A stretch of 64,000 bases of DNA, from NCBI GenBank assembly GCA_041550235.1, contig JBFEPE010000002.1, positions 909 to 64,908 on the forward strand, written 5' to 3'. This stretch comes from Minisyncoccia bacterium (lineage in GTDB: Bacteria > Patescibacteriota > Minisyncoccia > UBA6257 > JAAZHW01). Below are positions 19,563 through 51,200 of this stretch, one piece after another; position 1 is the first letter of the stretch; each line of letters starts with the position of its first letter. The notes below the pieces were generated by a model. The model worked only from the letters and a program-made list of their open reading frames with translations, was not told the DNA's origin and did no database searches. Position numbers and translations under genes: made by a program.

Positions 19563-20138
19563 ATGAAAAAAGAAAAGCAATTAAATATTAAAAGAGTTTT
19601 TGTATTTATAGATGCTTCTAATGTTTGGAGTATTGTTAAATCAATAAAGAGGTTTGTTGAATATAAAAATCTTGAAAATTATTTTAAGAAAAAATTTAAT
19701 GCAGAGAAAATTAAAATATTTTATTATGATGCCTATCCAAAAAATGGGACGAGGAAATATAATTTAGATGATAAGCACAAGTTTTTTACTTATCTCAAAA
19801 AAGGATTAGGTTTTATGGTGGTTAAAAAAGAATTAAAAAGAATCTCTGTTGTTAGTGGGGATAGCGAATCAATAATTGAAAAAGGGAATATGGATGTTGA
19901 AATAGTCATTGATGCTATTCACAATTTAAATAAATATGATATTGCGATTTTATTTAGTGGTGATTCTGACTTTTTAGCTTTGATTAATTATTTAAAAAGC
20001 AATCAAAAAAAAGTTTATATATATTCATCAAAAGATAATATCTCACAGGAATTAAAAACAGGGGGAGATGGTTATTTCGATTTGAAAAATATAAATGAAA
20101 TTTGGGGCAAGGAATTAAAGCATCGCAAGAACTTATAA
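19563..20138 (+). CDS. NYN-domain (LabA-like) protein, putative RNase
   Basis: VFVFIDASNVW .. NMDVEIVIDAIH .. ILFSGDSDFLALI are NYN/PIN-like acidic motifs. Confidence 0.65.
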   Translation: MKKEKQLNIKRVFVFIDASNVWSIVKSIKRFVEYKNLENYFKKKFNAEKIKIFYYDAYPKNGTRKYNLDDKHKFFTYLKKGLGFMVVKKELKRISVVSGDSESIIEKGNMDVEIVIDAIHNLNKYDIAILFSGDSDFLALINYLKSNQKKVYIYSSKDNISQELKTGGDGYFDLKNINEIWGKELKHRKNL

Positions 20139-20985: not shown

Positions 20986-22014
20986 ATGGCAAAGACAAAA
21001 GAGAGTTCTTCAAAAGAAGAAGCACATCAAAAAGATATTGCTCTTGATGAGGCAATCAAAAATATTCAATCAAAATATGGCGAGGGCTCAATAATGAAAT
21101 TGGGCGAAGCCCCAAAAGTTGATGTTGAGGTCATACCAACCGGCTCATTATCATTAGACCTCGCATTAGGAGTAGGCGGCATTCCAAGAGGAAGAATAAT
21201 TGAGATATTTGGACCAGAATCAAGTGGGAAAACAACCCTTGCTCTACATATTATTGCATCAGCACAAAAAAAGGGAGGTAAGGCCGCCTTTATTGATGCT
21301 GAACATGCCCTTGACCCAGAATATGCCAAAAGAATCGGAGTAGAAATAAAGGAATTATTTATTTCTCAGCCGGACAACGGAGAGGAGGCGATGGCAATAA
21401 TGGAAAACTTAGTGAGGTCAGGTTCATTGGATGTGATAGTAGTTGATTCAGTGGCCGCTCTCACTCCAAGAGCAGAAATAGAGGGGGAGATGGGCGCTCA
21501 TCATGTTGGACTTCAAGCAAGATTAATGTCTCAAGCATTAAGAAAAATAACTGCATTGGCTCAAAAAACAAAGACGACAATTATTTTTATCAATCAAATA
21601 AGAATGAAGATTGGAGTAATGTTTGGAAATCCCGAAACAACATCGGGAGGAAGAGCATTGAGATTTTATTCGTCAGTGCGGTTAGATATTAGGAAGACGG
21701 CTCAAGTAAAGAAGGGTGAGGAGATAATTGGCTCTCGAACAAAAGTAAAGGTTGTGAAAAACAAAGTAGCCGCTCCATTCAAAGTTGCTGAGTTTGATTT
21801 ATATTACAATGAAGGCATATCAAGAGATGGTGAAATTTTAGGTCTTAGTGCAAAGTTGGAAATTATATCAAAGTCGGGTAATACTTATTCATTTGAGGGA
21901 GAGAAATTGGGAGTTGGAGCGGATAATGCGAGAAGATTTCTGAAGGAAAATCAAAAAGTTTCAAGAGAGATAGAGAAATTAATATTAAAGAAGGCAAAGG
22001 AATTGGCAAGGTAG
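20986..22014 (+). CDS. recA: recombinase RecA
   Basis: [52 protein letters not shown]. Confidence 0.95.
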
Positions 22015-22253
22015 TTTTGATAGATTTTTTTGGGAGGTGGGGATAATAGAATCACAATGATTAAAAATTTCTTTAAATATTATTAAAATCCCTCCCCGCC
22101 CCTTCGGGGCGGGGAGGGATTTGCTGTTTTTGTTCGCCTCAATATTAAAAATCAAAATATATGCCATTAAAAAATATTATTGAAACAACATAAATGCTTC
22201 CCCCCGCCGTAGGCGGAGGAAGATTCGCCTTACTTATCTTATAATCAAAAAAT

Positions 22254-22412
22254 ATGCTAATAAATAAAATAATTGAAAAAAATAAAAAGGAGATAATCTC
22301 CGGTATCTTTATTTTTTTGATTGTATCAATAAGTTTCGGCTTAGGATTTATTGTCGCCTCAAAGATGATAATAAAGACTCCAATTATCTTTCAGCAATGT
22401 AATAATCAATAA
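22254..22412 (+). CDS. small (52 aa) single-TM membrane protein, not in the ORF track
   Basis: Own translation: MLINKIIEKNKKEIISGIFIFLIVSISFGLGFIVASKMIIKTPIIFQQCNNQ*. Ends 9 nt before the tRNA-Thr. Confidence 0.3.
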   Translation: MLINKIIEKNKKEIISGIFIFLIVSISFGLGFIVASKMIIKTPIIFQQCNNQ

Positions 22413-22421
22413 TGATTGATG

Positions 22422-22494
22422 AGCCGAAGGCGAGAATTGAACTCGCGACCTCTGCTTTACGAAAGCATTGCTCTACCAACTGAGCTACTTCGGC
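22422..22494 (-). tRNA. tRNA-Thr(CGT)
   Basis: RC: GCCGAAG-TA-GCTC-AGTTGGTA-GAGC-A-ATGCT-TTCGTAA-AGCAG-AGGTC-GCGAG-TTCAATT-CTCGC-CTTCGGC-T. Confidence 0.85.
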
Positions 22495-22643
22495 GATTTT
22501 TTATGATTATATTTTTTTGTGGCATTGTTGCAAGATGCTTTTTTAAATCACTACATTATTCCCGCCCCGCAAGGCGGGGCGGGGGGCACCTCTTTTTTTC
22601 AAAATCTCAAAATTATTATAACCTATTATATAAATAATAAAAA

Positions 22644-22683
22644 AAGCGAGCGACTACACCCATTTTGGTAGTCGCTCTTTTTC
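22644..22683. terminator. bidirectional rho-independent terminator (A-run / GAGCGACTAC..GTAGTCGCTC / T-run)
   Basis: AAAAAAGCGAGCGACTACACCCATTTTGGTAGTCGCTCTTTTT. Confidence 0.6.
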
Positions 22684-22989
22684 CAAACTTGAATTCGCCA
22701 ATTTTGGTATTACGAATTGGTTTGGTTAATGTTGGCATCGTTGCGTTTAAACTGCAGGTTATTCTTCTTCATCTTATTATCCTCCATGGATAAAGGGTTT
22801 TTAAACCACTCATTATCTCTTCTTAAGAGACAAATGACCATATTCAGTATGCCCGCTAATAAGACACCTGAATCTTATGAATCCGCATGAAAAAGATTCT
22901 AAATTTATAATACCAAAAATAAATTTTGATAGCAAGAGTTTGTTTGTGGATAGGAACAACCCGCCTTATTTCTTATTTGATTAAAAATT

Positions 22990-22998
22990 TGATATAAT
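22990..22998 (+). promoter_or_regulatory. extended -10 element TGATATAAT upstream of the 571-aa gene
   Basis: TTTGATATAAT lies 78 nt upstream of the ATG. An AGAGGAG RBS lies at 23057-23063. Confidence 0.4.
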
Positions 22999-23075
22999 GA
23001 TTAAAAATAATTGAGCCAAATATAGGCCATCGTCAAAATTCACAATAATAAATCTCCAAGAGGAGAAAAATTAAG

Positions 23076-24791
23076 ATGAATAAATTAATAAAAGATTCTT
23101 TCGTCTTGTCTAATCTAAACAAAGTCAATTCGCCTGATTTGAAAAAAATTAGACAAAATTTATCTAAGGAAATATTAAGAAATAGAAAAAGAAATGGGCT
23201 TTTTTCTCAAAATGCCGGAGAAAATTTTGCCATCTTTACCGCCCTTTGCCAAGGCGACCGAGATTTTTTCAAAACAAAAGATTTAGCGAAGATATTGAAA
23301 TATCTCACATCTTTAGAGGTTGAAGAAGGTGGTCCTTACTTTACTTCCCTTGAAGAAAAAAAGATTGATTTGGGGATAAATTGCCAAATCGGATGTTTCT
23401 TAAATTCTTACGAAGTTAATCTTTCAAAAATAGATGAGTTGGTGGAAGATGCAATAGACTCAAATAATTATGATTCAGATTTTTACTCAAACCCCCACAT
23501 TGTTATTTATCTTATTTCAAATTTCTATAATGGCTCTAAAAAAGAAAAATTAAAGAAGCAGATTTTAAAAAGAATAAAGGGCAATATTGAGAGATTGAAT
23601 TTGTCATTGCTCTGTTTGTCATTGTTCAATTTGGGTTATAGAGATAAAAAATTTAAAAATATTTGTCTATTTGACGAAAACGAAGATTCTAAATCAGATT
23701 TTGAATCGTCTTTTTGTTTTTTGTTAAAAAATAGAATAAACAAAGAATATTCTGAAAATATAGAGGGTGAGAGATTAAAAAGAGAAAAAGAACAGAGCGA
23801 AAAAGAAGAAAAGAGAATGATGGATAAAATTTTAATTTTGGCAAAAAAAAGATTTTCTTCTTTGCCAAAGGAAATGAGGGAATTATCAATGAAGCAAATA
23901 AAGAGAACGATGAATGGTAATTTTGATAAACAAATGCCGTTGATTAGTTATTATTTTAAAAAAGCGATAGGCAAAAGAGGGGAGTCAATCTCTGAGGATT
24001 TTATAGCAGAGGTGGGATTGATAAATACTTTTTTCTGGACTGCCTTTATTATTTATGATGATTTTTGGGACGAAGATGAAGAAAGAAATCCTCAAATATT
24101 GCCAGTGGCGAATTTATTTGCAAGGGAGATGAATAATTTTTTTGCCAAGTTTTTTGATAACAATAAAAACGGCTTTGGCAATTTTTATTCATCATTATTT
24201 GATAAGTTGGATGCAGCCAATAATTGGGAAACGATTCATTGCCGGGCTGAAATAAGGGATGGAAAATTCATTATTCCCGATAAGTTGCCGGATTACAAAA
24301 ATTATGAGAAAAAATATGAGCCGGCGGCTGCTCATATATTGGGACCAGTATTGATAATGAAAAAAATTGGTTTTTCTGAGGACAGCAGGGAAATGAGATA
24401 TTTGATTGATTATTTTAGAAATTATTTAATAGCGATGCAGATGAATGATGATGCTCATGATTGGAAAGAGGACTTAAATCGCGGTCATTTAAGCACGGCG
24501 GTTGTTTTGTTAATTAAGGATTTTTTGAAAAAATATCCAGACAAAAAAGAGATTGATTTGAGGGATGATATTGAAAAACTTCAAGAAGTTTTTTGGTTTG
24601 AGACAATGCCGGTTATTTGCGAGAGGGCAATTAAGTATTGCGAAAAATCAAGAAGAGCGATGCTGAAAATGGATTTCATTGAGGATTATAAGCCATTAGA
24701 AAAATTTATTAATATCCCCGAGGGAGCGATGATAGAGGCTCAAGAAAAGCAATCAGAATCAAGCGAATTCATTAAGGAGTGGAGCAGTTAG
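23076..24791 (+). CDS. 571-aa protein with isoprenoid-synthase-like metal-binding motifs (DDFWD and NDDAHDWKE about 134 aa apart) after a ~300-aa N-terminal region of unknown fold
   Basis: IIYDDFWDEDEE (DDxxD) and MNDDAHDWKEDL (DDxxD / NDxxHxxxE) are spaced as in class I terpene synthases and trans-prenyltransferases. The family assignment is inference only. Confidence 0.4.
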   Translation: MNKLIKDSFVLSNLNKVNSPDLKKIRQNLSKEILRNRKRNGLFSQNAGENFAIFTALCQGDRDFFKTKDLAKILKYLTSLEVEEGGPYFTSLEEKKIDLGINCQIGCFLNSYEVNLSKIDELVEDAIDSNNYDSDFYSNPHIVIYLISNFYNGSKKEKLKKQILKRIKGNIERLNLSLLCLSLFNLGYRDKKFKNICLFDENEDSKSDFESSFCFLLKNRINKEYSENIEGERLKREKEQSEKEEKRMMDKILILAKKRFSSLPKEMRELSMKQIKRTMNGNFDKQMPLISYYFKKAIGKRGESISEDFIAEVGLINTFFWTAFIIYDDFWDEDEERNPQILPVANLFAREMNNFFAKFFDNNKNGFGNFYSSLFDKLDAANNWETIHCRAEIRDGKFIIPDKLPDYKNYEKKYEPAAAHILGPVLIMKKIGFSEDSREMRYLIDYFRNYLIAMQMNDDAHDWKEDLNRGHLSTAVVLLIKDFLKKYPDKKEIDLRDDIEKLQEVFWFETMPVICERAIKYCEKSRRAMLKMDFIEDYKPLEKFINIPEGAMIEAQEKQSESSEFIKEWSS

Positions 24792-24822: not shown

Positions 24823-27195
24823 ATGGATAAAAGTGTGGTAAAAAAATATATTGACTCTCAAAAAAATAAAGCAGTTGAAATGCTTGATTTTGATAATGAA
24901 AAAATAAAATACTCTGATTTAATTAAACAACACAGGGAAATAAAGAATTTTAAGGGAAATGAAGAAATTGTCCGAGCTTATTTATTGTCTAAACTTTCAA
25001 ATGAATTGGGATACAAATTGGAAAATATTGAGATAGAGAAAGAGTATAATCTTGGAAGACCAAAAACAAATAAGCCGAGAATTGACTTAATTGTTCGGGA
25101 TGATGAGGGAAACGCTTTTTTATATATTGAAGTGAAAGGTCCTAATGAATTTGAGAAAAATAAAGATGAAGTAATTGAAAAACAATTATTTGGTTTGGCA
25201 TCTCAAGAAAAAGGACAGGGTAAAAATATAAAATACCTTGTTCTTTATTCAATTGATGTGTTAGGTGAAAAAATAAAAGACAAAGTGGTAATTATTGATT
25301 ATGAAAAATATCCATCTTTTGACAAGTGGGAAGAAGAAAGGAATTTCACCGATGAGTTGCCAAAGAGATATGGCAATGCTCAAAAAGAGCCATATAAGAA
25401 AGGAGGAAAAAAGGATTTGAGAACTGATTTTGCAAATGAAGAATTAGAGGCAAAAAGAAAAAATCTTCATAATGTTTTGTGGGGTGGCGGAGGAACTGAT
25501 GACAATGATATATTTTCTTCATTAGTTAATATAATTTTGGCTAAGATTCAAGATGAAAGAGAAAGAAAAAACGGCGAAAAATATCAATTTCAAATTTTTT
25601 CTTTTCAAGATGGGGGTAGTTTTGAAAGTAATGAAGAAATTTTTGAAAGAATAAACAAACTTTACAGAAGGTCATTGAAGGAAATAATGTATATGACAGA
25701 CGAAAAAGAAATAAACGAAAGTTTTATAATTGACAAAAAGAAGTTTTCTTTGAATAAATTAAAATATACCATTCAAGAATTGGAGGAATATTCATTTATT
25801 GAGGGAAGAAGTAGTTTGGGCGGAAGGGATATTTTGGGCCAATTTTTTGAAGGTATTGTGAGGGACGGCTTTAAGCAAAATAAAGGTCAATTTTTTACTC
25901 ATTCCAATATTATTAAGTTTATTCTTTATACCCTTCAATTAGATAAATTAGCGATAGAAAAAATAAATAAAGATAAGGAAATTCCTTATTTGATTGATCC
26001 ATCGGCTGGAAGCGGGACATTTTTAATTGAATATATGAATTTCATCACTGAAAATATAAAAAGGAAATATAGGGATAAGTTGGATAATAATTTTAATATT
26101 AAAGAAAGGATAAATGATTGGATGCCTGATGGGAGGGAAAATAAATGGGCAAAGGATTTTATTTACGGAATAGAGCATAATTTTAATTTAGGAACTGCCT
26201 CAAAGGTAAATATGGTTTTGCACGGTGATGGCTCTACTAATATTTTTGTCAAAGATGGTTTATTGCCATTCAATTATTATAAAAAAGAAAATGGAATAAA
26301 TATTTTAAAGAATTCGAAGGATGATGAAAAATATTTTGATAAAAGCATTAATGGAAAATTTGACATTGTCATTACTAATCCGCCATTCTCAGTAGATTTA
26401 GACAAGGACACTAAAAAAACATTAAAAGATAGTTTTGTTTTTGGGGATAAGAAAAATTCGGAAAATCTTTTTGTGGAAAGGTGGTATCAATTATTAAAAG
26501 AAAATGGTCGGCTGGGAGTAGTTTTGCCCGAGAGTGTTTTTGATACCGCAGAAAACAAATATATCAGATTATTTTTGTATAAATACTTTAAAATAAAAGC
26601 AGTCGTTTCTCTGCCTCAGTTAGCATTTCAGCCATATACTTCAACTAAAACAAGCTTGCTTTTTGCCCAAAAGAAAACAAAGAAAGAAATTGAAAAATGG
26701 AATGAATTATGGGCAACTTACTCAAATGATTACAATCAATTAAAAACGAGAGCAGAAAAAGAAGTAGAGCATTTTATTAAGGGAAAAGAAATGGATAAAA
26801 AATGGGCCATCTATAAGGAGACAGAAAAAAAGAGAAAAGACAATATTTTAAGATTATTAATTAATAATATTGATGAGGATGATAAAAATTTATCTCTTCA
26901 AAAATTAGTTGAAAAATATCAAGATGAGATAATCGATTTGTTGAAAATAGAAAAAGAAACGGATGTTTTTGGTTTTGTTAATGCTTGGTGGGTGTTTGGC
27001 AATGTTTCAAAAGAATTGGATTATTCTATTTTTATGGCTGAAGTGGAAAATATTGGTTATAAGCGGACAACGAGGGGAGAAAAGACGACATCAAACGACT
27101 TATTTAGGGTGAATAAAGAAGGCGGGGTTATTATTGATGATGTAAAAAAAGAAACTGCCTTGGATTTTATAAGGTCTGATGTAATATGGGATTAG
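24823..27195 (+). CDS. Type IIB/IIG-like restriction-modification enzyme: N-terminal PD-(D/E)xK nuclease domain fused to gamma-class N6-adenine methyltransferase (BcgI-A-like)
   Basis: N-terminus RIDLIVRDDEGNAFLYIEVKG (D..EVK nuclease motif). MTase motif I LIDPSAGSGTFLIE and motif IV IVITNPPFS. No HsdR in the window. Confidence 0.65.
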   Translation: MDKSVVKKYIDSQKNKAVEMLDFDNEKIKYSDLIKQHREIKNFKGNEEIVRAYLLSKLSNELGYKLENIEIEKEYNLGRPKTNKPRIDLIVRDDEGNAFLYIEVKGPNEFEKNKDEVIEKQLFGLASQEKGQGKNIKYLVLYSIDVLGEKIKDKVVIIDYEKYPSFDKWEEERNFTDELPKRYGNAQKEPYKKGGKKDLRTDFANEELEAKRKNLHNVLWGGGGTDDNDIFSSLVNIILAKIQDERERKNGEKYQFQIFSFQDGGSFESNEEIFERINKLYRRSLKEIMYMTDEKEINESFIIDKKKFSLNKLKYTIQELEEYSFIEGRSSLGGRDILGQFFEGIVRDGFKQNKGQFFTHSNIIKFILYTLQLDKLAIEKINKDKEIPYLIDPSAGSGTFLIEYMNFITENIKRKYRDKLDNNFNIKERINDWMPDGRENKWAKDFIYGIEHNFNLGTASKVNMVLHGDGSTNIFVKDGLLPFNYYKKENGINILKNSKDDEKYFDKSINGKFDIVITNPPFSVDLDKDTKKTLKDSFVFGDKKNSENLFVERWYQLLKENGRLGVVLPESVFDTAENKYIRLFLYKYFKIKAVVSLPQLAFQPYTSTKTSLLFAQKKTKKEIEKWNELWATYSNDYNQLKTRAEKEVEHFIKGKEMDKKWAIYKETEKKRKDNILRLLINNIDEDDKNLSLQKLVEKYQDEIIDLLKIEKETDVFGFVNAWWVFGNVSKELDYSIFMAEVENIGYKRTTRGEKTTSNDLFRVNKEGGVIIDDVKKETALDFIRSDVIWD

Positions 27196-27198
27196 ATT

Positions 27199-28641
27199 AT
27201 GATAAAAAGTTTTATAATACAATTTAAGGATTTGGGTTTTGATAAATTTATCAGAAATAATTTTAGAACATTTAATCTAAAATTGAAGATAGATGATTTT
27301 TTTGTTTCTAATAGTGGATTAAAGTTTATTCGCATTAAAGATATTTTTAATATTATTTCAGGGCTTGCTTTTAAGAGTGATGATTATGAACTAGAGGGCA
27401 TTCCCTTAATTAGAATTGGAGATATTGGCGGTAATTTTAAAAACACAAAATATTTGCCCGAGGAATACGAAAAAATATACAAAGATTTTTTATTGAAGAA
27501 ATTTGATTTAATTGTTGGACTAACAGGGGATGGGGATTTTAAGATTGATTTAATAGATACGGATAATAAATACTTACTTAATCAAAGGGTAGGGGTATTG
27601 CGAGTTAAAAACAAAAGAGAGGATGTAAATATTTTATTTTACTATTATCTTTTGAGATGTCTTAATTTTATTGCGGTTCAATTTAATTATTTTTCTAATG
27701 GCAAAACACAATTAAATATAAGCCCCTTTGATTTATTAAATATAAAAATCCCTCTTATCTCTAAGCAAAAACAGGATGAGGTTGTAGAGAAGATAATCCC
27801 TATTGAAAACAACATCAAGAAATTAAAAAATAAGATAGAAAAACCACAAGACATAATTAATGAAGTTTTTGCCGAAGAATTTGGTTTTGATGTTTTTTTA
27901 TTGAATCAATTTGGGAAAGGAATGACCGCGGGGACACAAAATTTGCCCGATAAAAAATTAAGGATTTTTCAAAGAAATTTTTCTGAATTTTCAAGAAGCG
28001 ATATCTTAAGGTTTTCAACGAGATTTCATAATAATTCAACCAAAAATTTAATGAATTTTTTTAATACAATAGAATCTATAAAAGTAAAAGATGTTGTTGA
28101 TTATTGCGAAAAAGGAGTGCAACCAAAATACAATGAAAATGGGGAGATTCCGGTTATAAAAATAATAAATTTGAAGAATAATCATATTGATTTTTTAGAA
28201 ACTGAAAAAATATCAAGGCAATATTTTAATAAATTGGGTAATAAAAATAAATTAAAATTGAATGATATAATCATTTGTGCTACTGGGAAAATATCACTTG
28301 GAAAAATAGATATTTATGAAAACAAAGAAGATGCTATCACTTCATTAGATAATTATATTTTAAGATTAAGAAATATCTATAATCCATTGTTTTTTACCTA
28401 TTTTTTTAGGTCTATTATGGGCTACTTCCAAATAGAAAGAGACTTCACTGGAACTACAAATCAAATTCATCTTTATTGGGATCAAATTTCTAATTTTAGG
28501 GTCCCCAACATCCCATTATCTCATCAAAATAAAATAGTTGAGAATATAAAATCTCGATTAGATAAACAAGAAGAGATTGAAAAAGAAATAGAGATAGAAA
28601 GAAATAAAATAGACAAAATAATTGAGTTGGTTGTGAGATGA
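27199..28641 (+). CDS. restriction-modification specificity subunit with two target-recognition domains (HsdS/BcgI-B-like)
   Basis: Two TRD halves (LIRIGDIGGNF..LLNQRVGVLRV and VIKIINLKNNHIDF..), each followed by a conserved coiled-coil spacer. Starts 4 nt after the upstream gene. Confidence 0.75.
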   Translation: MIKSFIIQFKDLGFDKFIRNNFRTFNLKLKIDDFFVSNSGLKFIRIKDIFNIISGLAFKSDDYELEGIPLIRIGDIGGNFKNTKYLPEEYEKIYKDFLLKKFDLIVGLTGDGDFKIDLIDTDNKYLLNQRVGVLRVKNKREDVNILFYYYLLRCLNFIAVQFNYFSNGKTQLNISPFDLLNIKIPLISKQKQDEVVEKIIPIENNIKKLKNKIEKPQDIINEVFAEEFGFDVFLLNQFGKGMTAGTQNLPDKKLRIFQRNFSEFSRSDILRFSTRFHNNSTKNLMNFFNTIESIKVKDVVDYCEKGVQPKYNENGEIPVIKIINLKNNHIDFLETEKISRQYFNKLGNKNKLKLNDIIICATGKISLGKIDIYENKEDAITSLDNYILRLRNIYNPLFFTYFFRSIMGYFQIERDFTGTTNQIHLYWDQISNFRVPNIPLSHQNKIVENIKSRLDKQEEIEKEIEIERNKIDKIIELVVR

Positions 28642-28672: not shown

Positions 28673-29140
28673 ATGGTGAATAATAATAAAGGTAAAAAAT
28701 TTAATGAAGGCGATAAGATAATCGCATTCACTGACGGAGGAAGTCGGGGAAATCCTGGACCTGCCGCCATTGGTGTATATATCAAGGGAACGAATGGCGA
28801 AGAAAAGAAATATTATGAATTCATTGGCGAGGCAACTAATAATGTCGCCGAATATAAGGCGATGATCTTTGCTTTAAAAAAGATAAGGCAATTAGCCGGG
28901 AGAGATGCTCTTAAGAAAATTTTTGTGGAAATAAATATGGATTCTGAATTAATTGTGCGACAATTGAATGGGGAATATAAGGTTGAGGAAAAAGAACTTC
29001 AAGGATTATTTATGGAAGTTTGGAATTTAAGATTTGATTTTCCAAATTTGAAATTTAATTATATTCCTCGCGAGGAAAATAAGATGGCTGACTCCCTCGT
29101 CAATATCTGCTTAGACGAGGAGGCAAGTAGATTATTTTAA
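28673..29140 (+). CDS. rnhA: ribonuclease HI
   Basis: FTDGGSRGNPGPAAIGV .. NNVAEYKAMIFALKK. Confidence 0.85.
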   Translation: MVNNNKGKKFNEGDKIIAFTDGGSRGNPGPAAIGVYIKGTNGEEKKYYEFIGEATNNVAEYKAMIFALKKIRQLAGRDALKKIFVEINMDSELIVRQLNGEYKVEEKELQGLFMEVWNLRFDFPNLKFNYIPREENKMADSLVNICLDEEASRLF

Positions 29141-30145: not shown

Positions 30146-30577
30146 ATGTTTTTTGGAGAATACCATCACAATTTAGATGAAAAAGGGAGGCTGGCAATAC
30201 CAGTCAAATTTAGGTCGGCCCTTAAAAACGGAGCCGTTGTCGCCAAAAGTTTGGAGGGGGCATTGGCAATATATCCAAGAAAAGACTGGCAGGATTTTGC
30301 TACAAAATTAAGTGGGCTTCCAATTAGTCAAAAGGATGCAAGGTCTTTCTCAAGATTTTTCCTCACAAGTGCAATGGAAGTTGATTTAGATTCTCAAGGA
30401 AGAATATTGATTCCGGATTATTTGAGAAAATATAGTGAGATGAAAAAGAAGGCAGTCATAACTGGTCTTGGTCAAAAGATTGAGGTTTGGGATGAGAAGA
30501 AGTGGGAGGATTATAAGGATAAGGCGGAAAAGAATTCTGTTGAGACAGCGGAGAAGTTGGGTGATTTAGGAATTTAG
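30146..30577 (+). CDS. mraZ: transcriptional regulator MraZ
   Basis: Duplicated MraZ half-domains: HNLDEKGRLAIPVKFR and LDSQGRILIPDYLRK. Confidence 0.85.
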   Translation: MFFGEYHHNLDEKGRLAIPVKFRSALKNGAVVAKSLEGALAIYPRKDWQDFATKLSGLPISQKDARSFSRFFLTSAMEVDLDSQGRILIPDYLRKYSEMKKKAVITGLGQKIEVWDEKKWEDYKDKAEKNSVETAEKLGDLGI

Positions 30578-30614
30578 ATTTTGATGTTGGTTGGTAAGTT
30601 AATATAGGAAATAT

Positions 30615-30800
30615 AGGGCAAGGAGAAACACCCCGTCTGTTTTCGGCGGGACGTAATAAATTATTTCATAATTTAAACGTCCCAGCCACGTTGAAATTGC
30701 GAGGCAATTTTTTACGTGGCGAGGCGAAACCCGCCTTCGTCAACCCGCCTTCGCTAAAGCTACGGCAGGGCAAGGGACTTCGGCGAGGCGAAGAAAAATA
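30615..30800. repeat. composite GC-hairpin repeat block
   Basis: ACACCCCGTCTG, CCACGTTGAAATTGCGAGGCAATTTTTTACGTGGCGAGGCGAAACCCGCCTTCG, CTACGGCAGGGCAAGGGACTTCGGCGAGGCGAAG. Confidence 0.7.
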
Positions 30801-30857
30801 ACCCGTTTCTGCACATTGCTTGTTGCTTTGTGCAAAAACAGGTTTGATTGATCGAGA

Positions 30858-31061
30858 TTATTTGTTCTTTTGTTGGTTTCGACTAGGGATTTTAATAAGG
30901 ATAAGCCAAAGAATTTGCAGGGTAATAACCAAAATCAAGTAGATGTTGAGATTTATTATTGTGTGGGGGTAAGATAATAAATGGAATAATCCCGCCCCAA
31001 ACAATATTGGCCAAAGTGTAAATATGAGCATAAAGACTGGACCAAATATTATCTTAATCAT
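30858..31061 (-). CDS. small hydrophobic membrane protein (67 aa, 2 TM)
   Basis: Last gene of a minus-strand three-gene unit. 4-nt overlap with the upstream ORF. Confidence 0.4.
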   Translation of the reverse strand: MIKIIFGPVFMLIFTLWPILFGAGLFHLLSYPHTIINLNIYLILVITLQILWLILIKIPSRNQQKNK

Positions 31062-31315
31062 CCCGCACCTCCTTGTTCTTGACTATTCTCAATGATTTCA
31101 AAAATACTTTCTTGGACTTTTTCTTCAGATTTTGATAAATGATTGAGTAGGGCATTCATGATGGCAGTATTCCTTGTGTATCTACTTACCCCTATTCCAT
31201 ATCCTATAGGACAATGCATTTCTTTATCATAATATAGTCTTGCCTCCCATCTGAATTCATCATCGGGGGAAAATTTTGTAGAAACATAGATTTTAGGTTT
31301 AAATTCTTTTCCCAT
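31058..31315 (-). CDS. hypothetical 85-aa protein
   Basis: AGGAGG RBS precedes the ATG. Coding-like composition. Confidence 0.5.
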   Translation of the reverse strand: MGKEFKPKIYVSTKFSPDDEFRWEARLYYDKEMHCPIGYGIGVSRYTRNTAIMNALLNHLSKSEEKVQESIFEIIENSQEQGGAG

Positions 31316-31325
31316 TTCAGCCTCC

Positions 31326-31478
31326 TTACACGAACATTAGAAGCACAAAAGATCCGATGAGAATGGCGCTTGCGATAATGATAGCGATTTTGATTTTCCG
31401 TTTAGTATTCTTGCCGAAATTTCCTTTCAGAGAATTCTTTCCTAATTTTCTGTTTTGTCTGTTCTTTCTCTTACTCAT
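31326..31478 (-). CDS. small (50 aa) basic-N-terminus, single-TM protein; not in the ORF track
   Basis: Own translation: MSKRKNRQNRKLGKNSLKGNFGKNTKRKIKIAIIIASAILIGSFVLLMFV*. RBS ATAGGAGGTA lies upstream. Confidence 0.4.
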   Translation of the reverse strand: MSKRKNRQNRKLGKNSLKGNFGKNTKRKIKIAIIIASAILIGSFVLLMFV

Positions 31479-31560
31479 TTTTAAATACCTCCTATATTTT
31501 TAAATTTTTTCAAAATTTACTACTACTACTATTTAATAACGAAAATAAAAATTTGTCAAT

Positions 31561-32442
31561 ATGCATATACCAGTATTATTAAAAGAAACAATAGACTTGC
31601 TCAACCCTCAATCAAATGAGAATTTTGTTGATTGCACTATCGGAGAGGGCGGGCATAGTTTAGCAATCTTACAAAAAACATCTCCTTTGGGAAAAATATT
31701 AGGGATTGATTTAGATGTTGAGACATTAGAGAGAGTAGGCAAGAAATTAGAGTCATATAAAGAGCGGACGATTTTAGTTCAAGACAACTTTAAAAATTTA
31801 GAGAATATTTTAGAGAAATCAAATTTCAAAAATATTTCAGGGATATTATTTGATTTAGGAATGAGTTCTATATCATTAGAGGAATCAGAGAGGGGATTTA
31901 GTTTTCAAAAAGAAGAGCCACTTTTGATGAATTATGGGAGTGATTATATATTTACCGCTTCTGAAATTGTAAATGATTGGTCAAGAGAGGATATTGAAAA
32001 AATATTAAAAGATTTTGGTGAAGAAAGATTTGCTAAAAATATTTCCCAAGAAATTGTAAAAAGGAGAGTAGATTATCCAATAAAGACGACGACTGATTTG
32101 GTGGAAATAATAAGATCGGCAATTCCTAAAAAATTTCAGCGAGGAAAGATTCATCCAGCGACAAAGACATTTCAAGCGATAAGAATTGCAGTAAATAATG
32201 AGTTAGAAAATATTCAGTTGGGATTAGATGGGGCAGTAAATTCATTGGAGAAAGGCGGAAAGATTGCAGTGATTAGTTTTCATTCTTTGGAGGACAGAAT
32301 TGTGAAGTGGTTTTTTAAGCAAAAGAAAGAAGAGGGGATTTTAGAAATTTTGACGAAAAAGCCAATTACTCCTTCTGACAAAGAGATGGAAAATAATCCT
32401 CGGGCAAGGTCGGCAAAGTTAAGGGTGGCAATGATAATATAG
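31561..32442 (+). CDS. rsmH: 16S rRNA (cytosine1402-N4)-methyltransferase RsmH (MraW)
   Basis: MHIPVLLKETIDLL..DCTIGEGGHSLAIL..FDLGMSS. Confidence 0.85.
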   Translation: MHIPVLLKETIDLLNPQSNENFVDCTIGEGGHSLAILQKTSPLGKILGIDLDVETLERVGKKLESYKERTILVQDNFKNLENILEKSNFKNISGILFDLGMSSISLEESERGFSFQKEEPLLMNYGSDYIFTASEIVNDWSREDIEKILKDFGEERFAKNISQEIVKRRVDYPIKTTTDLVEIIRSAIPKKFQRGKIHPATKTFQAIRIAVNNELENIQLGLDGAVNSLEKGGKIAVISFHSLEDRIVKWFFKQKKEEGILEILTKKPITPSDKEMENNPRARSAKLRVAMII

Positions 32443-32523
32443 ATGTCGTTAAAATAAAAAAATTACCCCGCCTTCGCTAAAGCAGAATGTCCGCCTATGG
32501 CGGGCTATGGCGGGCAAAGAAAT

Positions 32524-50929: not shown

Positions 50930-51200
50930 ATAGAGATTAAATAGAAGCAAAAAAACAATACCCCCCCCGCCGCAGGCGGGGGGGGTATTGTCATTCCTGT
51001 CCGCCTGAGGCGGATTATACTCCGGCAGGAATCTAATTCTCCGCCGTAGGCGGACATTCTGCCCTCCATAGAGGGGTGGTTCGTCTCAGGCGGGACGGGC
51101 ATTGCCCTGCCGAAGCCCCTTGCCCTGCCGTAGCCCGCCGTAGGCGGACATTCTGCTTTAGCGAAGGCGGGTTGGCGAAGGCGGGGTGTTTCTCTAAAAT
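50930..51200. repeat. largest composite block of GC-hairpin modules in the window (at least 8 hairpins, several in reverse orientation)
   Basis: CCCCCCCGCCGCAGGCGGGGGGG, CCGCCTGAGGCGG, CCGCCGTAGGCGG, reverse complements of the CCACCCCTCTAT and ACACCCCG modules, CGAAGGCGGG x2. Confidence 0.7.

Follow-up and report, generated by a model that had tools for sequence, protein, structure and literature searches.

In the ComQ/ComX pair of the ComQXPA system, in PalQ/PalX (whose kinase is PalP) and in StheQ/StheX, an enzyme having the trans-isoprenyl-diphosphate-synthase (trans-IPPS) fold prenylates a tryptophan that stands at, or close to, the C-terminal end of a ribosomal peptide encoded next to it. 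A further enzyme, ChrPC, was reportedly described by Hubrich et al. in 2024 (Chem 10:3224). According to a review (PMC13290415), ChrPC joins a tryptophan prenyltransferase domain that is like a trans-IDS (trans-isoprenyl diphosphate synthase) to a class II cyclase domain resembling MstE, and cyclizes the attached chain on a RiPP (a peptide made by the ribosome and then modified). Here, these systems are compared with gene X, which encodes a protein of 571 amino acids (also called X) in a Minisyncoccia bacterium (GenBank assembly GCA_041550235.1, contig JBFEPE010000002.1, positions 909 to 64,908). The whole stretch, 64 kb in length, is called the window. An earlier note on this DNA had seen in X the aspartate-rich motifs of class I isoprenoid synthases. 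The Patescibacteria (candidate phyla radiation, CPR) count as metabolically minimal and are not known to lipidate peptides. Literature searches pairing either name of this group with ComQ, ComX or ComQXPA found no relevant report.

On balance, the analysis favors the view that X is a soluble, two-domain, ComQ-like, Mg2+-dependent tryptophan prenyltransferase acting on peptides, and a member of a large, unannotated patescibacterial family. That the family prenylates peptides carrying a G-x-P-W (GxPW) motif is probable; for the role of the orphan copy in the window, our confidence is lower. Window X should, on this analysis, be read as an orphan of a CPR-wide family of ComQ/ChrPC-like peptide prenyltransferases, with a cyclase domain that appears vestigial. 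The family would work like ComQ, PalQ and ChrPC without belonging to the families of any of them. The reading is built on parallels: the fold, the two-domain architecture, the linked peptide and the linked kinase mirror ComQXPA, PalPXQ and ChrPC. The decisive evidence for the function of X is the genomic context of its family.

The survey took in more than 40 distinct related loci; GTDB genomes supplied 38, and contigs found by looking up exact proteins were added to these. In essentially every locus having enough upstream DNA, the genes come in one order: an OmpR-type response regulator, a peptide of 35-39 amino acids, a histidine kinase, and the relative of X. At least 35 loci show this arrangement with a GxPW peptide. 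The kinase is about 460 amino acids long, and its N-terminus crosses the membrane several times without a large loop, as do receptors for peptide pheromones. Often the kinase gene overlaps the X gene or is separated from it by 2-20 bp. In at least four proteins (P0038, P0041, P0043 and P0121, 783-1018 amino acids in length; for example, L005:8001-10742), the kinase is fused to the N-terminus of the X relative. Such a fusion implies that a predicted receptor and a putative maturase would stand side by side at the membrane.

The peptides follow the consensus M.KLIKEILTNK..RN....GxPW, with 0-5 variable residues after it, and the G-x-P-W is invariant. One example is the peptide MEQLIKKFLTDKAVRNEATLTALVAIAIVPGMPWYS of L003, whose cognate X relative is P0003. 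Across the aligned open reading frames (ORFs) for the peptide, the entropies at the three codon positions are 1.04/0.67/1.61. The third position is the highest, which points to a translated gene; by its consensus and this codon signature, the ORF of 35-39 codons is a genuine conserved gene. In one locus (L050), peptide and X occur alone, without kinase or regulator. Two further kinds of gene recur near X. Small Cys-rich proteins (Zn-ribbon, Com-like) are encoded immediately 3' of X in about eight loci (for example, L012:8652-9137 and L005:10820-11011), and genes for MacB-type ABC exporters recur in eight loci; either could be a target of the regulon or an exporter of the peptide.

These loci resemble that of ComQ from Bacillus (IPR033965) at the level of the family. 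Both have a short precursor with a tryptophan near its C-terminus, a multi-transmembrane kinase and a response regulator; in both kinds of precursor the N-terminus is conserved and the tail around the tryptophan varies; and both enzymes have the all-alpha trans-IPPS fold with a DDxxD motif as the first Asp-rich motif (FARM). There are also differences. The Bacillus order is Q-X-P-A, whereas the CPR order is regulator, peptide, kinase, X. ComA is a regulator of the NarL/LuxR type, unlike the OmpR-type regulators of the CPR loci. In addition, X has a cyclase-like N-terminal domain of about 250 amino acids that ComQ lacks. PalQ of Paenibacillus alvei and StheQ of Sphaerobacter thermophilus are likewise remote enzymes of the isoprenoid-synthase fold that act on the C-terminal or penultimate tryptophan of an adjacent peptide, and the Pal cluster also includes a histidine kinase. 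Their peptides are different, PalX having an NHLP-type leader and StheX having 69 amino acids, in contrast to the 35-39 amino acids and the GxPW of the CPR peptides.

The close coupling of kinase and X, through translational coupling or overlap and through outright fusion, would also be expected if X were a subunit of the kinase. Under this alternative, X is non-catalytic or senses a ligand (such as a polyprenyl phosphate or a ligand of the lipid II type), the peptide is a membrane regulator, as the hydrophobic core of most of the peptides might suggest, and the copy in the window is a leftover. We regard this as quite unlikely. A protein that has no catalysis to perform would not explain why all of the metal-binding aspartates are strictly invariant, nor does a leftover fit the strong selection acting on the orphan X, which has no kinase nearby. 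Further, the peptides of the distant clades have a middle segment that is not hydrophobic and yet retain the PW, and pairs of peptide and X exist without any kinase.

For structure, the evidence comes from models. An AlphaFold2 (AF2) model of X was built from an alignment of 58 sequences sharing 36-49% identity with X, the same alignment that was used for all statements below about invariant residues. The model has a predicted local distance difference test score (pLDDT) of 91.4 and a predicted template modeling score (pTM) of 0.82. In a Foldseek search of the PDB, the C-terminal ~340 residues match the trans-polyprenyl synthases 4jyx, 3mzv, 5zlf and 3aqb (prob 1.00), with template modeling (TM) scores of 0.68-0.74 normalized to the target and identities of 11-17%. 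The C-terminal domain of the model is all-alpha and has two DDxxD motifs at the C-termini of helices, as in the trans-IPPS superfamily (IPR008949-type). Short homologs (329-470 amino acids) are made up of this domain, their N-domain being small or missing. Thus, the class I isoprenoid-synthase fold that the earlier note had proposed for the C-terminal half is borne out, and the domain is very probably an enzyme that binds a prenyl diphosphate.

The Asp-rich motifs themselves are IIYDDFWDEDEE (residues 325-336) and MNDDAHDWKEDL (residues 456-467). In the alignment, D328, D332, D458, D459, D462, E465 and D466 are invariant, D329, E333 and D334 reach 90% conservation or more, and about 30 further residues, mostly polar, are also invariant or nearly so. 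Across 249 family proteins, the D[DN]xxD pattern of the first motif is found in 245, and 184 fit a pattern for the second, Q-x-[NDS]-DD-x-[HQ]-D, that was made strict on purpose. Conservation of this kind, which bears out both Asp clusters, argues that the motifs are not there by chance. The distance between them had been put at 134 residues; it is in fact 131 from start to start, or 130 from D328 to D458, and across the family it ranges from 115 to 141 with a median of 128. The second motif had been offered either as a DDxxD or as a triad of the NSE/DTE kind. The first of these descriptions holds, the motif being a canonical Q-x-x-DDxxD second Asp-rich motif (SARM), with an additional conserved N457 beside D458; the triad does not. 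A class I terpene synthase was considered and set aside: the second motif has the IPPS register, and the top 37 structural matches of X are all prenyl diphosphate synthases, with no cyclase among them.

A full FARM, a canonical SARM and a best structural match to polyprenyl synthases are, of course, also what an enzyme of isoprenoid biosynthesis would show. X might then be a trans-prenyl diphosphate synthase that elongates chains. Or it might be a bifunctional terpene synthase of the class II/class I type, since a cyclase-like N-domain joined to an alpha domain resembles the bifunctional diterpene synthases; a free isoprenoid could then be the signal for the kinase. This possibility is unlikely. 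X shares with the canonical trans-prenyl diphosphate synthases (PF00348; 4jyx, 3mzv, IspA, IspB) the structure and the register of both motifs, but it lacks the arginines of their DDxxDxxxxRRG. The sequence that follows its FARM is EERNPQILP, without RRG, in contrast to the DRDRLRRG of a canonical IPPS encoded in L047. No match of X to PF00348 was found at E<=1, and alignment of the family profile with E. coli IspA by hhalign was insignificant (prob 0.3%). The acid motif that a class II reaction would need, DxDD, is absent from X. The locus L047 is itself informative. Here, in a clade of ~650-amino-acid relatives, the order is kinase, X, IPPS, and the canonical short-chain prenyl-diphosphate synthase LLAQDDVMDRDRLRRG is encoded at 2267-2968, 4 bp after X. 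A second enzyme that makes prenyl diphosphates would be redundant, and this argues that X consumes them rather than makes them. Lastly, the alternative leaves unexplained the invariant GxPW peptide that accompanies the family. The terpene synthase or chain-elongating prenyltransferase of the earlier note is thus not what the evidence favors: the second motif is a SARM and no NSE/DTE triad, RRG and PF00348 are lacking, and what accompanies the family is a mini-peptide ending in Trp, together with a histidine kinase and a response regulator.

The N-terminal half of X had been thought to have no recognizable motif, which is only partly right. X as a whole has no match in Pfam, NCBIfam or PADLOC, and none among PDB sequences by phmmer and a profile search. 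However, E81, G85, G86, P87 and Y88 are invariant, an xGGPY occurs in 184 of the 249 family proteins, and the fold resembles that of a terpene cyclase. A separate AF2 model of residues 1-192 (pLDDT 95.6) has the drimenol synthase AsDMS as its best Foldseek match (TMq 0.71-0.73), followed by MstE, squalene-hopene cyclase and Rv3377c, the four together spanning TMq 0.57-0.73; the beta subunit of farnesyltransferase (FTase) matches more weakly. The E-values are weak (0.02-0.2), yet all of the matches point to one theme. This theme is corroborated at the level of sequence by relatives of ~650 amino acids that carry the class II acid motif, a D[DE]xDDT being kept in 65 of the 249 family members (median length, 652 amino acids). 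In an alignment of both clades made with MAFFT, X has lost DxDDT together with a deletion of 15 residues, and QNAGENF stands at the site of PYPDDLDDT. The loss of the motif in the clade of the window means that the N-domain there is probably only structural or peptide-binding.

Here, the comparison with ChrPC becomes useful. At the level of fold, X has both of its domains, and the ~650-amino-acid relatives keep DxDDT and may, as ChrPC does, cyclize the attached prenyl chain. Unlike ChrPC, window X has had the acid motif of its cyclase deleted, and the CPR family comes with a two-component system and with precursors that are very short.

An isoprenoid-fold enzyme had been called unexpected in this kind of genome. 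On the contrary, the family is very common in Patescibacteria. A word-indexed search found 246 homologs of X, and in a library of representatives at 50% identity the family has 1,386 clusters at E<=0.001, of which 637 pass E<=1e-30. Those members that a source names are called "hypothetical" and come from metagenome-assembled genomes (MAGs) of the patescibacterial type. Several GTDB records that carry the operon (L017, L018, L025, L026, L037 and L040) bear the title "uncultured Gammaproteobacteria" or "Bacteriovoracaceae"; mislabeled bins are the probable cause.

In the window, however, the enzyme stands without its family's partners. The place that the regulator, peptide and kinase genes have in relatives is occupied by recA (20986-22014) and a tRNA-Thr(CGU) gene. 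A tblastn search of the window for these partners was negative, and a six-frame search for pseudogene remnants in the 1-kb gap upstream of X (22015-23080) gave at most 7 bits. The same gene context is found in three assemblies: the window, L053, whose X is identical, and L009, whose X is 96% identical and which belongs to a "Candidatus Paceibacteria" MAG (JBFFCO01). L009 and L053 likewise lack the peptide, the kinase and the regulator. The two nearest relatives that are not identical, P0002 and P0005 (44-45% identity), are both linked to kinases, and the uncoupling in the lineage of the window is therefore derived.

Despite its missing partners, the orphan is under strong purifying selection, which marks it as a functional gene. 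Compared with the L009 copy, its ratio of non-synonymous to synonymous divergence (dN/dS) is 0.063 (65.5 synonymous and 21.5 non-synonymous differences), and it keeps every residue that is invariant in the family. With such selection, something presumably remains for the enzyme to modify, either a peptide encoded in trans or another substrate containing tryptophan. The C-terminus of X itself (…KEWSS) was considered as a self-substrate and rejected; a tryptophan lies in the last 10 residues of only six of 249 members, some of them linked to kinases.

Several observations weigh against the view that X prenylates a peptide. The partner genes are absent from the window: hidden Markov models (HMMs) for the peptide, kinase and regulator, run against all window ORFs of at least 25 amino acids (hmmsearch --max, E<=1), found none in 64 kb, and among window ORFs of 20-80 amino acids having a tryptophan near the end (regular expression), none ends in PW, which leaves the proposed substrate missing locally. 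As for the donor, no prenyl-diphosphate synthase was detected in the window, only L047 has a canonical one among the 46 loci surveyed, and many CPR genomes are generally regarded as having little isoprenoid synthesis. The likeness to ComQ does not extend to sequence profiles. An alignment of 12 database proteins, retrieved with a ComQ sequence that is 100% identical to P0250, was compared with the family profile by hhalign; the result was prob 0.5% and E 0.11, covering 44 columns around the FARM only. Further, the second motif of ComQ and StheQ is a pseudo-SARM (N-D), in contrast to the full DDxxD of X, which has D458 where they have N. Compared by the residues described for StheQ (Q212, N215, D216 and D219), X has Q455 likewise three residues before the second motif, and D458 in place of N215. 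Lastly, the hydrophobic middle segment of most Paceibacteria-type peptides means that these could be small membrane proteins instead.

If X nevertheless is a peptide prenyltransferase, its mechanism would run as follows. In the C-domain, the FARM (D328/D332) and the SARM (D458/D459/D462) would hold Mg2+, through which the domain would bind an allylic prenyl diphosphate of C10-C20. The enzyme would ionize this donor and alkylate the indole of the invariant tryptophan in the GxPW of a ribosomal precursor of about 35 amino acids. In most members of the family, the multi-transmembrane histidine kinase encoded alongside would next detect the lipidated peptide, and the OmpR-type regulator would relay the signal, to give an autoinducer circuit like those of ComQXPA and PalPXQ. 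In the window, the enzyme has been uncoupled from this operon and would presumably act on a peptide encoded elsewhere in the genome, or on some other substrate containing tryptophan.

A broader generalization can be offered only tentatively, and we think it rather less likely to hold than to fail. CPR bacteria would, on this generalization, widely encode a hitherto unrecognized signaling by prenylated peptides, with an OmpR-type regulator, a GxPW pheromone precursor of 35 amino acids, a multi-transmembrane kinase and a cyclase-prenyltransferase maturase beyond the reach of sequence methods that might tie it to ComQ; the clades with DxDDT, sometimes with an IPPS of their own, would make terpene-cyclized signals, and the lineage of the window would retain the maturase only. 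A lone maturase would, in turn, imply either a precursor encoded in trans or the modification of a foreign peptide from a host or neighbor.

Were the prenylation of GxPW to be true, this would be the first candidate chemistry for peptide signaling, between cells or between cell and host, to be assigned to the CPR/Patescibacteria. Lipidation of tryptophan of the ComX type would then reach far beyond the Firmicutes and Chloroflexi, and a "hypothetical" family of 1,386 clusters lacking a Pfam domain would find its place, within the isoprenoid-synthase superfamily, on the branch of the peptide prenyltransferases. The relatives bearing DxDDT would become new candidates for terpene-cyclized RiPPs and for the biocatalytic lipidation of peptides. 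For the window, a spurious link to a restriction system is removed, and an unusual orphan, a putative maturase, is flagged.

That link to restriction-modification (RM) genes deserves comment. In the window, as in L009 and L053, X lies 31 bp upstream of an RM fusion gene, and the earlier note had raised a defense-associated role, or a nucleotide- or lipid-modifying one, for X. Under this alternative, X would be a partner of the RM system, either associated with defense or modifying nucleic acids or lipids. Elsewhere, in three unrelated lineages, Type I RM genes (HsdR/M/S) lie just 3' of the regulator-kinase-X genes at L056:5072-10851 (with GmrSD as well), L038:5573-8469 and L043:10445-13349, and the L050 pair of peptide and X lies in an island with TerB_N, SIR2-like, HNH and ImmA/HTH genes. 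X operons may tend to sit in variable regions or defense islands. Nonetheless, a functional partnership with RM is very improbable. RM genes occur within 7 kb of X in four independent lineages (that of the window, L038, L043 and L056) among about 46 loci, and about 42 of the 46 have none at that distance; they directly adjoin X only in the window lineage and L056, and this particular RM pair is next to X only in the window lineage. Clustering of the genes neighboring X gave no RM cluster. PADLOC assigns X to no defense family, and one relative of X was found among 2.9 million viral contigs. The GC contents of the RM genes (29% and 26%) and of X (31%) differ, as do their synonymous divergences (dS) from L009 (0.067 and 0.25, respectively, about 4-fold), which suggests separate histories. 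The co-occurrence that the defense proposal would need is thus rare, and, by these comparisons, the RM pair is an incidental neighbor of X, not a conserved partner.

The RM pair was also compared between two near-identical genomes, those of the window (pair at 24823-28641) and of L009 (2612-6364). The methyltransferase is 97% identical. The S subunit has diverged centrally, in its target-recognition part; only 27730-27890 and 28504 onwards align. This divergence, together with the low GC and dS, suggests recent exchange and swapping of specificity of the RM genes.

As for expression, the ORF of X is uninterrupted and starts with ATG. The strong ribosome-binding site that had been noted is present as a Shine-Dalgarno-like GAGGAG 10 nt before it. 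The promoter that had been proposed for X alone fares less well. The extended -10-like TGATATAAT is there, but a promoter scan called no full -35/-10 site upstream of X on the + strand, and promoter-like matches in this region of 33% GC are not above background (16, against 12.2 +/- 4.0 in shuffles); a promoter of its own is plausible but weakly supported. A short sequence (~50-100 bp) upstream of X in L009:590-792 recurs, with identities of 74-95%, at several intergenic sites in the window, perhaps as a small dispersed repeat or as a shared promoter or terminator element. The positions of these features are collected in Table 1.

Table 1. Positions, in window coordinates, of gene X, its domains and motifs, and adjacent features.
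Feature	Position	Strand	Basis
Gene X (571 aa; terpene-cyclase-like N-domain, linker helix, trans-IPPS-like C-domain)	23076..24791	+	ORF, AF2 model, homologs
N-terminal alpha/alpha domain (class II terpene cyclase/prenyltransferase-beta-like), residues 1-192	23076..23651	+	Separate AF2 model and Foldseek
QNAGENF, residues 45-51, at the site of PYPDDLDDT in ~650-aa relatives	23208..23228	+	MAFFT alignment of both clades
EGGPY motif, E84-Y88 (G85, G86, P87, Y88 invariant)	23325..23339	+	Alignment
Long linker helix between the domains, residues 208-259	23697..23852	+	DSSP on model
C-terminal trans-isoprenyl-diphosphate-synthase-fold domain, residues ~260-571	23853..24788	+	Foldseek against PDB; conserved core of family
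FARM (first Asp-rich motif) at the C-terminal end of helix 307-331: D328-D329-F-W-D332-E333-D334	24057..24077	+	Sequence, alignment, model
Second Asp-rich motif, canonical SARM register, Q455-M-N457-D458-D459-A-H-D462, C-terminal end of helix 438-461	24438..24461	+	Sequence, alignment, model
Extended -10-like TGATATAAT, 5' of X	22990..22998	+	Sequence; weak evidence
Shine-Dalgarno-like GAGGAG, 10 nt 5' of the X ATG	23060..23065	+	Sequence
tRNA-Thr(CGU), directly upstream of X	22421..22494	-	tRNA call
RM pair 3' of X, not part of the X system	24823..28641	+	Pfam, PADLOC
Nuclease-like N-terminus (HSDR_N_2) fused to N6-adenine methyltransferase, 790 aa	24823-27195	+	Pfam, PADLOC
S subunit with two target-recognition domains (TRDs), 480 aa	27199-28641	+	Pfam, PADLOC
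Window copies of the short sequence upstream of X in L009, intergenic	51109-51184, 32467-32517, 30723-30801, 22965-23016		

Other genes in the neighborhood may be mentioned briefly. By their Pfam domains, a NYN-domain protein (19563-20138) and the recA mentioned above are encoded near X. Reading of translations predicts an RNase H-like ORF of 155 amino acids at 28673-29140, and mraZ- and rsmH-like genes at 30146-32442; the latter look like the beginning of a cluster for division and the cell wall. The window holds seven tRNA genes.

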